Positions 24,001 to 25,206 of a stretch of 64,000 nucleotides of DNA are shown one piece after another. The stretch is from Narcine bancroftii (taxonomy: Eukaryota). The notes beneath the pieces are model-generated. The model saw only the letters and a list, made by a program, of their open reading frames with translations, made no database searches and was not told the origin of the DNA. The position numbers were made by a program, and so were the translations under genes. The stretch is taken from assembly GCF_036971445.1 (NCBI RefSeq), contig NC_091469.1, forward strand, positions 421,538,001 to 421,602,000, in the 5' to 3' direction. How positions within the stretch are numbered: position 1 is the first letter of the stretch; the number at the start of each line of letters is the position of its first letter.

Positions 24001-24939
24001 TCATGAATGACCCTCTCTGCTCGGAGAGAACTCTACAGGAAGCTGACAGATGGGCGGCAGCGCCTCCGAATCGACCACTTTTGGTTGCATTATGCTGCGG
24101 CCAAGTGGAGTTATTATTCATATCTGTGTATAAAAAAAAAGTACACTGATTCCCGCAGCAACCAGAATAAGTAGGCAGGCTGCCAATATAAGGAAGAACC
24201 TTTGGCGTCCTGTAATCCTATAGTGAGCGAATGCTCCCAGCAGCCTGTGTTCGACGAAAAAGCTGCTCATTTCCATGCCAATAGCTAGAAAGCTGGGGAA
24301 AGACGCAGGCCAGGTTTTGATAGGCTCTAGTGACATTCGTGCACAGTGAAGACATGGCGCCTCCTCTTCCAAGTGGACGCCACACCAAACACAGCTTAAT
24401 TATAACTATCCTTATCGTACACTTCTTGATCCAATTAATCATTTCACCATCCGTTTTGAGAATGTCTTTACTTTGCACTGATTAGTACTGAGGGCACAAT
24501 CAGTCAGTAATAAATGTGTGCAGGCATATGCCCAGAACGAACTGCATGAGTTACCTGTATTTTCTTTCATTAAAGTGCACGAACCGGTCTAACACATAAG
24601 AGTTTTTGCTTAGACTTTCCCGACCTTATGATCGCCGAGCTCTGCTTCAATACAAAAGAAAATTCCTTCACCCACAATGCAAAAGCTGAGTCACTGCACA
24701 GAAACATCCAGATCCTGTAGATCGACGATGGTACGATTATCATTTCGAAAGCCTTTTAGATCCTAATTGTTAATCTCAGTATCCAGTTGCTTTTCTTACC
24801 TGTTTGAGAGACAGCTGTGCAGAAGAAGACGGATATCTCCCCATTGTAGACGCGCGATCCGCGCTTCCACTGATATCATTGCAGACCCCAGAAAAACCGC
24901 ACGTGTACCTTGAATAAATTCCTGCTGCATTCTGCCGGG

Positions 24940-25206
24940 CACGCTTTGAAGTATTTGTGGGCTAATAATGCTCGCAACCTTGATGGAAGAGCGTTTGTAA
25001 TTTAAATGCCACTATAGTGATCGATCACCGCCAAGAGCATGCAAACTTCGCAGAGAACCTTGCGATTGGCCGCTTGGAGTCACGTGGCGACACTTCACTC
25101 TATATTGATATCATTTTCTTTCAGCTCTATTGAGGAAGTGGGGAAGTTGGCACGGTCCATCCAGGTTGGTGGACAGTCACTTTACATGCTGGTTATCCCA
25201 TGACAG
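24940..25206. promoter_or_regulatory. hoxa1 promoter (probably bidirectional)
   Basis: CpG-rich, with inverted CCAAT at 25065-25069, GTCACGTG at 25079-25086 and palindrome GTGATCGATCAC at 25017-25028. Confidence 0.65.

Follow-up and report, generated by a model that had tools for sequence, protein, structure and literature searches.

Introduction

The closest described system to the locus considered here is HOTAIRM1, the antisense RNA of the interval between HOXA1 and HOXA2. In human NB4 cells HOTAIRM1 occurs as a two-exon form of ~500 nt from which the middle exon (exon 2) is skipped, and in NT2-D1 cells as an unspliced form of >4 kb; the unspliced 4-kb isoform contains the block that Rfam models as HOTAIRM1_2 (PMC5388432). 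HOTAIRM1 has also been reported in marsupials (PMC3541083), and by Rfam it has been placed in birds and reptiles, where only some of its regions are kept (PMC4378963). hotairm1 has been described by synteny in frog, medaka, gar and amphioxus (PMC6784235), while pipefish has yielded it by sequence and gar carries an annotation of it (PMC5168715). The same two reports give zebrafish as lacking hotairm1 and describe none found in cyclostomes (PMC5168715, PMC6784235), so loss of the RNA does happen. Hotairm1 has been argued to predate the chordate lineages (PMC6784235). In a review, the bamboo shark is given for HOXA11-AS and HOTTIP, and just “Chordata” for HOTAIRM1 (PMC8293171). The text of the literature searched contained no report of a cartilaginous-fish HOTAIRM1, and a prior record is quite possible.

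An original prediction for the window, by which we mean the whole 64-kb stretch of DNA that was analysed, had proposed that a spliced, HOTAIRM1-like lncRNA with homology at the level of sequence runs antisense from the hoxa1 promoter of a probable cartilaginous fish. It had named conservation as hoxa1 promoter DNA as the alternative.

Results

Locus and host

The window contains the 3′ end of a Hox cluster, in which hoxa3 (12145-14913), hoxa2 (stop at 21051) and hoxa1 (25207-26607) are all encoded on the plus strand. The hoxa1 coding sequence, the head-to-head partner of the antisense locus, was delimited by ORFs, an acceptor and a protein search, and comprises exon 1 (25207-25831) and exon 2 (26255-26607). 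The exon-1 protein search gave 61 hits among 92 candidates, with identities to HoxA1 of 92% in stingray, 84% in horn shark, 78% in elephant shark and 75% in bamboo shark, as compared with at most 64% in bony vertebrates and ~40% for HoxB1 proteins. Because the best matches are stingray and then sharks, the cluster is the HoxA cluster of a cartilaginous fish, likely a ray, in line with the host first proposed.

The intergenic stretch (21052-25250) shows no CpG depletion (observed/expected 0.5-1.3), in contrast to hoxa1 exon 1 (25252-25850; 0.19-0.24), where depletion is strong. Broken frames resembling LINE-type reverse transcriptase are recognizable by eye at about 35400-38300, 44300-45400, 50300-51300 and 60900-63100; they start ~9 kb 3′ of hoxa1, and none occurs among ORFs of at least 100 aa within hoxa3-hoxa1.

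The antisense start and shared promoter

On the minus strand, AAGTTTGC begins at 25048, and a second and a third conserved block continue to 25000. The cloned, spliced human HOTAIRM1 cDNA (PMC5388432, Suppl. Table S3) opens with the first of these blocks and then holds the other two in the same order as the ray. Counted by hand, 41 of 52 alignment columns are identical over 25048-25000, and 61 of 85, with four gap columns, when the alignment is extended to 24967, so that the match to the human sequence given in the original prediction is borne out. The ray block (24967-25048) and the human cDNA have an exact 15-mer in common, for which the rough chance expectation is ~2e-5 in a comparison of 60 x 300 nt; a text search of the literature with this 15-mer returned no match. 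The minus strand thereby carries the human start-site sequence (as sequence, not as initiation) in head-to-head orientation to hoxa1.

Rfam HOTAIRM1_1 (RF01975) is the sole family matched in 24740-25140, at minus-strand positions 25022-24887 and with 21.8 bits against a gathering threshold of 70. Its first 56 columns are gap-free and well aligned, and the remainder aligns poorly. The E-value, 2.9 over 4227 families or ~7e-4 for a single family, counts only because family, place and strand had been named beforehand, since stretches of the same size give unrelated hits of similar E: in two other 401-nt stretches no HOTAIRM1 family appeared, only unrelated hits with E values of 0.5-9.6, and HOTAIRM1_1 was absent at E<=10 from a search of 4.3 kb. 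Families of snoRNA and of bacterial origin also gave weak Rfam hits, which were rejected as chance.

The 159 nt that separate the hoxa1 ATG from the predicted antisense start correspond to a putative shared promoter stretch (25049-25206). It contains a minus-strand CCAAT at 25069, which we take to be an NF-Y box, and a GTCACGTG word at 25079, presumably a USF-type E-box, ~20 and ~30 nt respectively from the 5′ block. Separately, a frog qPCR primer labelled hoxa1-F (PMC6784235) includes an 8-mer of the start block (25048-25041), which is either a coincidence or a sign that the primer lies in hotairm1.

The predicted first exon and its donor

A CAG/GTAAGA splice donor (24800/24799; 24794-24801, minus strand) would delimit a first exon of 249 nt (24800-25048), the human counterpart being ~293 nt as counted from the cDNA. 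This donor contains the sole AGGTAAG on either strand of 21052-25206, among 13 in the window (P ~0.03 for 300 nt), and the consensus donor that had been noticed is thus above chance, moderately so. Two metagenome scans returned no stretch from a related locus with which to compare it.

Five frog hotairm1 oligos, including a splice morpholino, are printed in PMC6784235. Taken singly over the 4.15-kb intergenic stretch, none aligns significantly, shuffles as good numbering 66 (F1), 286 (F2), 280 (morpholino), 277 (R1) and 48 (R2) of 300. Within 25060-24760, three of them keep their order: F1 aligns at 24883, F2 at 24849 and the morpholino, as its reverse complement, best on the donor itself at 24800. 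The summed score of these three was reached by 28 of 2000 shuffles, two of them in order. By oligo match, the 24800 site ranks second of 90 donor-like sites and first among those with the oligos in order, no other GGTAAG site (0/25) reaches its score, and seven of 831 tiles match F1 and F2 as well. The donor-site ranking and the tile and acceptor statistics omit one short stretch of the window and tiles containing N. The ordered match ending on the donor is suggestive, having been noticed by eye before it was tested and assuming that F1 and F2 belong to frog exon 1. A spliced RNA using the 24799 donor is predicted and is probably made.

The HOTAIRM1_2 block

A second homologous block, which the original prediction had not mentioned, provides a stronger match than HOTAIRM1_1. 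Rfam HOTAIRM1_2 (RF01976) aligns over its full model to 22435-22639 of the minus strand (95.7 bits, gathering 37, E 1.7e-11), and is the only hit at gathering level in the 64 kb. Of the two Rfam models, HOTAIRM1_2 thus scores above its gathering threshold, and HOTAIRM1_1 has the right place and strand but falls far below its own. Since the two homologous blocks have the order, strand and interval expected of HOTAIRM1, between hoxa1 and hoxa2 of a HoxA cluster, it is very likely, indeed close to certain on these sequence grounds, that the locus is orthologous to HOTAIRM1.

This block is a conserved non-coding element with two TGATNNAT words (22505 and 22467), which we take to be Pbx-Hox-like, and two TGACA(G) words (22570 and 22493). 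The words at 22467 and 22493 are exact in the Rfam consensus and the other two are not, and none of 306 tiles of equal size has the same two-plus-two content, in a motif test that was post hoc. The Meis word used for comparison, CTGTCA, is from PMC5831782. With Pbx-Hox and Meis/Prep words that are clustered and conserved at the sequence level, 22435-22639 is likely a Hox/Pbx/Meis-type DNA element and a candidate enhancer.

Human exon boundaries were placed on the model using the cDNA, an exon 1-exon 3 junction primer (PMC7150441) and an exon 3 primer (PMC5388432). The earliest human exon-2 start falls at model column 180, and the annotated start is likely column 204, judging from a table note on a 5′ extension; about 179 of the 220 columns are thus intronic in the human spliced RNA. 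Two words common to the ray and the intronic part of the model are absent from the spliced human cDNA in the supplement. At the positions of the mammalian exon-2 acceptor AGs, the ray has AA (22477-22476) and GG (22453-22452). An AG does remain at 3-4 nt from the first of these positions, and a shifted exon 2 is therefore possible in the ray; because the human NB4 isoform skips exon 2, its acceptors do not in any case define HOTAIRM1. A donor-like TAC/GTAAGA word also lies within the block (22544-22536, minus strand) and is matched exactly by the mammalian Rfam consensus; it could mark either a site bound by a transcription factor or a conserved donor belonging to an exon not yet annotated.

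Nature of the conserved sequence

Homology to the human RNA ends ~82 nt into exon 1. In folding, exon 1 (z +0.78) and the HOTAIRM1_2 block (z +1.75) do no better than shuffled sequence, for which reason RNA structure was rejected as the cause of conservation; the Rfam models HOTAIRM1_1 and HOTAIRM1_2 contain no base pairs. Because homology is limited to 82 promoter-proximal nucleotides and a mostly intronic block whose exon-2 AGs are lost, conservation does not point to the RNA. Constraint at the level of DNA is the simpler reading of both blocks, and the common sequence likely owes its retention to promoter and enhancer function in DNA and not to a conserved RNA. The sequence-level lncRNA homology that was originally proposed holds for HOTAIRM1 position, for the 5′ end and for a second block, but is weakened as homology belonging to the RNA itself; conservation as hoxa1 promoter DNA accounts for the blocks no less well.

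It could be that the locus consists of nothing else, the blocks being control elements of hoxa1 and hoxa2, with no stable spliced antisense RNA and with splice sites present by chance. All of the significant homology does fall either close to the promoter or in DNA equivalent to intron, a published HOXA1 promoter ChIP primer corresponds to the extreme 5′ end of HOTAIRM1 (PMC7150441), the non-coding DNA of chondrichthyan HoxA clusters is reported to evolve very slowly (PMC2746220), and zebrafish is described as having lost hotairm1 (PMC5168715). However, chance would then have to account for a consensus donor that occurs once in the intergenic stretch and about as far from the homologous start as in human, for frog oligo matches that run in order and end on that donor, and for a rare strong acceptor with poly(A) signals beyond it at the other end of the interval, and transcripts are reported on both sides of the phylogenetic bracket (PMC6784235). 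We regard this possibility as unlikely.

Conversely, the blocks might act in RNA. Human unspliced HOTAIRM1 contains the HOTAIRM1_2 block, so a role in RNA is possible for it, and an unspliced ray isoform could bear the block as a protein-binding element (for UTX/MLL, for example) kept since the jawed-vertebrate ancestor. Strong conservation of the block is consistent with such a role, as are the binding of UTX/MLL by the human unspliced RNA (PMC5388432) and the headless phenotype reported in frog when splicing is blocked (PMC6784235). The kept words, though, resemble Pbx-Hox and Meis DNA sites, and the lack of a fold beyond that of shuffles and of base pairs in the Rfam models argues against an RNA element, making this proposal improbable.

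Acceptors, poly(A) signals and the predicted transcript

The original prediction joined the 24800 donor to an acceptor at 24124. All of its elements, the three blocks, the donor and the T-rich acceptor, are present on the minus strand where it had put them, but the junction fares less well. The acceptor (24124-24142, AG at 24125-24124) is ordinary, with 12 pyrimidines in 16 positions, which places it in the top 13% of the 1538 YAG sites examined in the window (203 score as well). Among the 55 minus-strand YAG candidates between the donor and hoxa2, three are stronger (21784, 22950 and 23235) and three tie with it, two of the latter (24293 and 24180) being nearer the donor. That 24124 is the main acceptor is accordingly unlikely. 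The full proposal, a two-exon RNA with a 24800-24123 junction and a 5′ sequence conserved in its capacity as RNA, draws on a GT-AG pair with a T10 tract and on a real 5′ homology to human; set against these, besides the competing acceptors, are the absence of homology after 24123 and of any AATAAA until 22756, and it seems improbable.

The strongest acceptor between the donor and hoxa2 is at 21784 (21784-21805, minus strand), where all 16 positions are pyrimidines, as at just two of the 1538 YAG sites. It lies 667 nt beyond HOTAIRM1_2 model column 204 and would begin a last exon at 21783. Minus-strand AATAAA signals that could end this exon occur at 21645 and 21550 (21545-21645), 138 and 233 nt downstream of the acceptor, tail to tail with the plus-strand AATAAA signals of hoxa2 (21419 and 21569); between 25048 and 22756 the minus strand has no AATAAA, where 2.95 are expected (P 0.05). 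The pyrimidine tract may reflect purine-rich sequence at the 3′ end of hoxa2. The mammal-built Rfam models HOTAIRM1_3, _4 and _5 gave no hit at E<=10 in the stretches searched, so homology lends the predicted last exon no support. We tentatively put forward 21784 as the main acceptor, giving it somewhat less than an even chance.

The longest ATG ORF is 46 aa in the 24800-24123 join and 107 aa in the join to 21784. That the latter encodes a protein (24930-24800 joined to 21783-21591, minus strand, with the ATG at 24930 and the stop ending at 21591) is highly improbable: it is the longest ORF among the 50 acceptors tried and 107 aa is reached in just 24 of 3000 shuffles, but it was singled out post hoc, three of the 50 joins give at least 100 aa, another ATG lies upstream of its own, neither half has a Pfam match above cut-off, and the junction itself is unproven.

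The sole other acceptor examined with 16 pyrimidines in 16 positions is on the minus strand at 16242, with an AATAAA ~230 nt on (about 16009), just beyond the 3′ end of hoxa3. It could represent the last exon of a hoxa3-hoxa2 antisense RNA, a repeated design or a compositional effect. The human HOXB-AS1 RNA, as listed in PMC8293171, lies between HOXB2 and HOXB3, a placement comparable to that of this putative antisense exon.

Discussion

Taken as a whole, the locus is best read as the ray counterpart of HOTAIRM1, a predicted spliced non-coding RNA head to head with hoxa1, in which the sequence that it has in common with human HOTAIRM1 has likely been kept for its role as promoter and enhancer DNA; we consider this account reasonably probable on the DNA signals at hand. 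A two-way hoxa1 promoter would fire antisense from near 25048 when hoxa1 is induced, probably by retinoic acid. The candidate common inducer site is a DR5 retinoic-acid-response-type element at 29407-29423 (plus strand), 2.8 kb 3′ of hoxa1, called, like the others in the window, with what we assume to be the DR5/DR2 consensus. Further elements of this type are a DR5 at 8979-8995 (plus strand), which precedes the hoxa3 coding exon by 3.2 kb, and a DR2 at 27766 (minus strand), 1.2 kb 3′ of hoxa1. In the interplay of U1 with poly(A) sites an early donor favours elongation, and here the strong donor 249 nt into the transcript, with no AATAAA in the next 2.3 kb, would have this effect. In mouse, the Hoxa1 3′ RARE has been proposed to drive Hotairm1 (PMC4510006).

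In the resulting RNA, 21783 is the most likely start of the second exon, and the poly(A) tail would be added near 21625 or 21530, so that the transcript meets hoxa2 tail to tail. The products would be a two-exon RNA of 0.4-0.5 kb, to be compared with the ~500-nt form of human NB4 cells, and an unspliced form of ~3.4 kb, against >4 kb in NT2-D1 cells. The 22435-22639 block would remain within the intron as a Hox/Pbx/Meis-type DNA element. By extension from human (PMC5388432) and frog (PMC6784235) work, the transcript, or its transcription, may tune 3′ HoxA chromatin in cis.

More speculatively, the ray may display the ancestral jawed-vertebrate form of HOTAIRM1, that is, a short two-exon RNA whose last exon abuts the 3′ end of hoxa2 and which skips over an ancient Hox/Pbx/Meis enhancer, with the mammalian middle exon arising later through the gain of splice acceptors at the enhancer's edge. 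We hold this to be conceivable, if rather less than probable. Were it true, the isoform with three exons, to which PRC2 binding has been ascribed, would be a later acquisition, and the original function would depend on the promoter shared with hoxa1, on the first donor and on the passage of transcription across the enhancer.

By sequence and not by position alone, the ray locus closes a gap in the record of HOTAIRM1, that of the cartilaginous fishes. The jawed-vertebrate age originally suggested is not new, an earlier origin having already been argued (PMC6784235), and with a deep age thus in print the surprise is modest. What the comparison adds is a view of which letters have lasted from the divergence of cartilaginous fishes and bony vertebrates. 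These are the start, the intronic motif block and probably the first donor, but neither the exon-2 splice sites nor the body of the RNA. The standing question about HOTAIRM1, whether the RNA product, the promoter, an enhancer or the act of transcription is what matters, becomes testable here with precise targets.

Human HOTAIRM1 and the ray locus both lie antisense between HOXA1 and HOXA2, head to head with HOXA1, and have homologous first 82 nt, a HOTAIRM1_2 block in the same order and on the same strand, and first exons of comparable length (~293 nt and, by prediction, 249 nt). They differ in that no similarity extends beyond ~nt 82 of exon 1, the exon-2 AGs are lost and HOTAIRM1_3-5 give no hit in the ray; the ray transcript, moreover, is predicted from DNA signals. 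The Xenopus tropicalis hotairm1 has spliced and unspliced forms, as predicted for the ray, and its published oligos align in order and end on the ray 24800 donor (PMC6784235), although the comparison consists of five short oligos, each at chance level alone. HOXA-AS3 and HOXB-AS3 offer a parallel, being Hox antisense lncRNAs traced down to elephant shark in which promoter DNA is conserved and the RNA body is not deeply so; in contrast to the ray locus, they are situated mid-cluster, have a CDX-site promoter and are supported by RNA-seq in shark (PMC8330917). Finally, pipefish and spotted gar hotairm1 were detected at the level of sequence between hoxa1 and hoxa2 outside the tetrapods (PMC5168715), as in the ray, but these are bony fishes, and the ray extends the record to the cartilaginous side.
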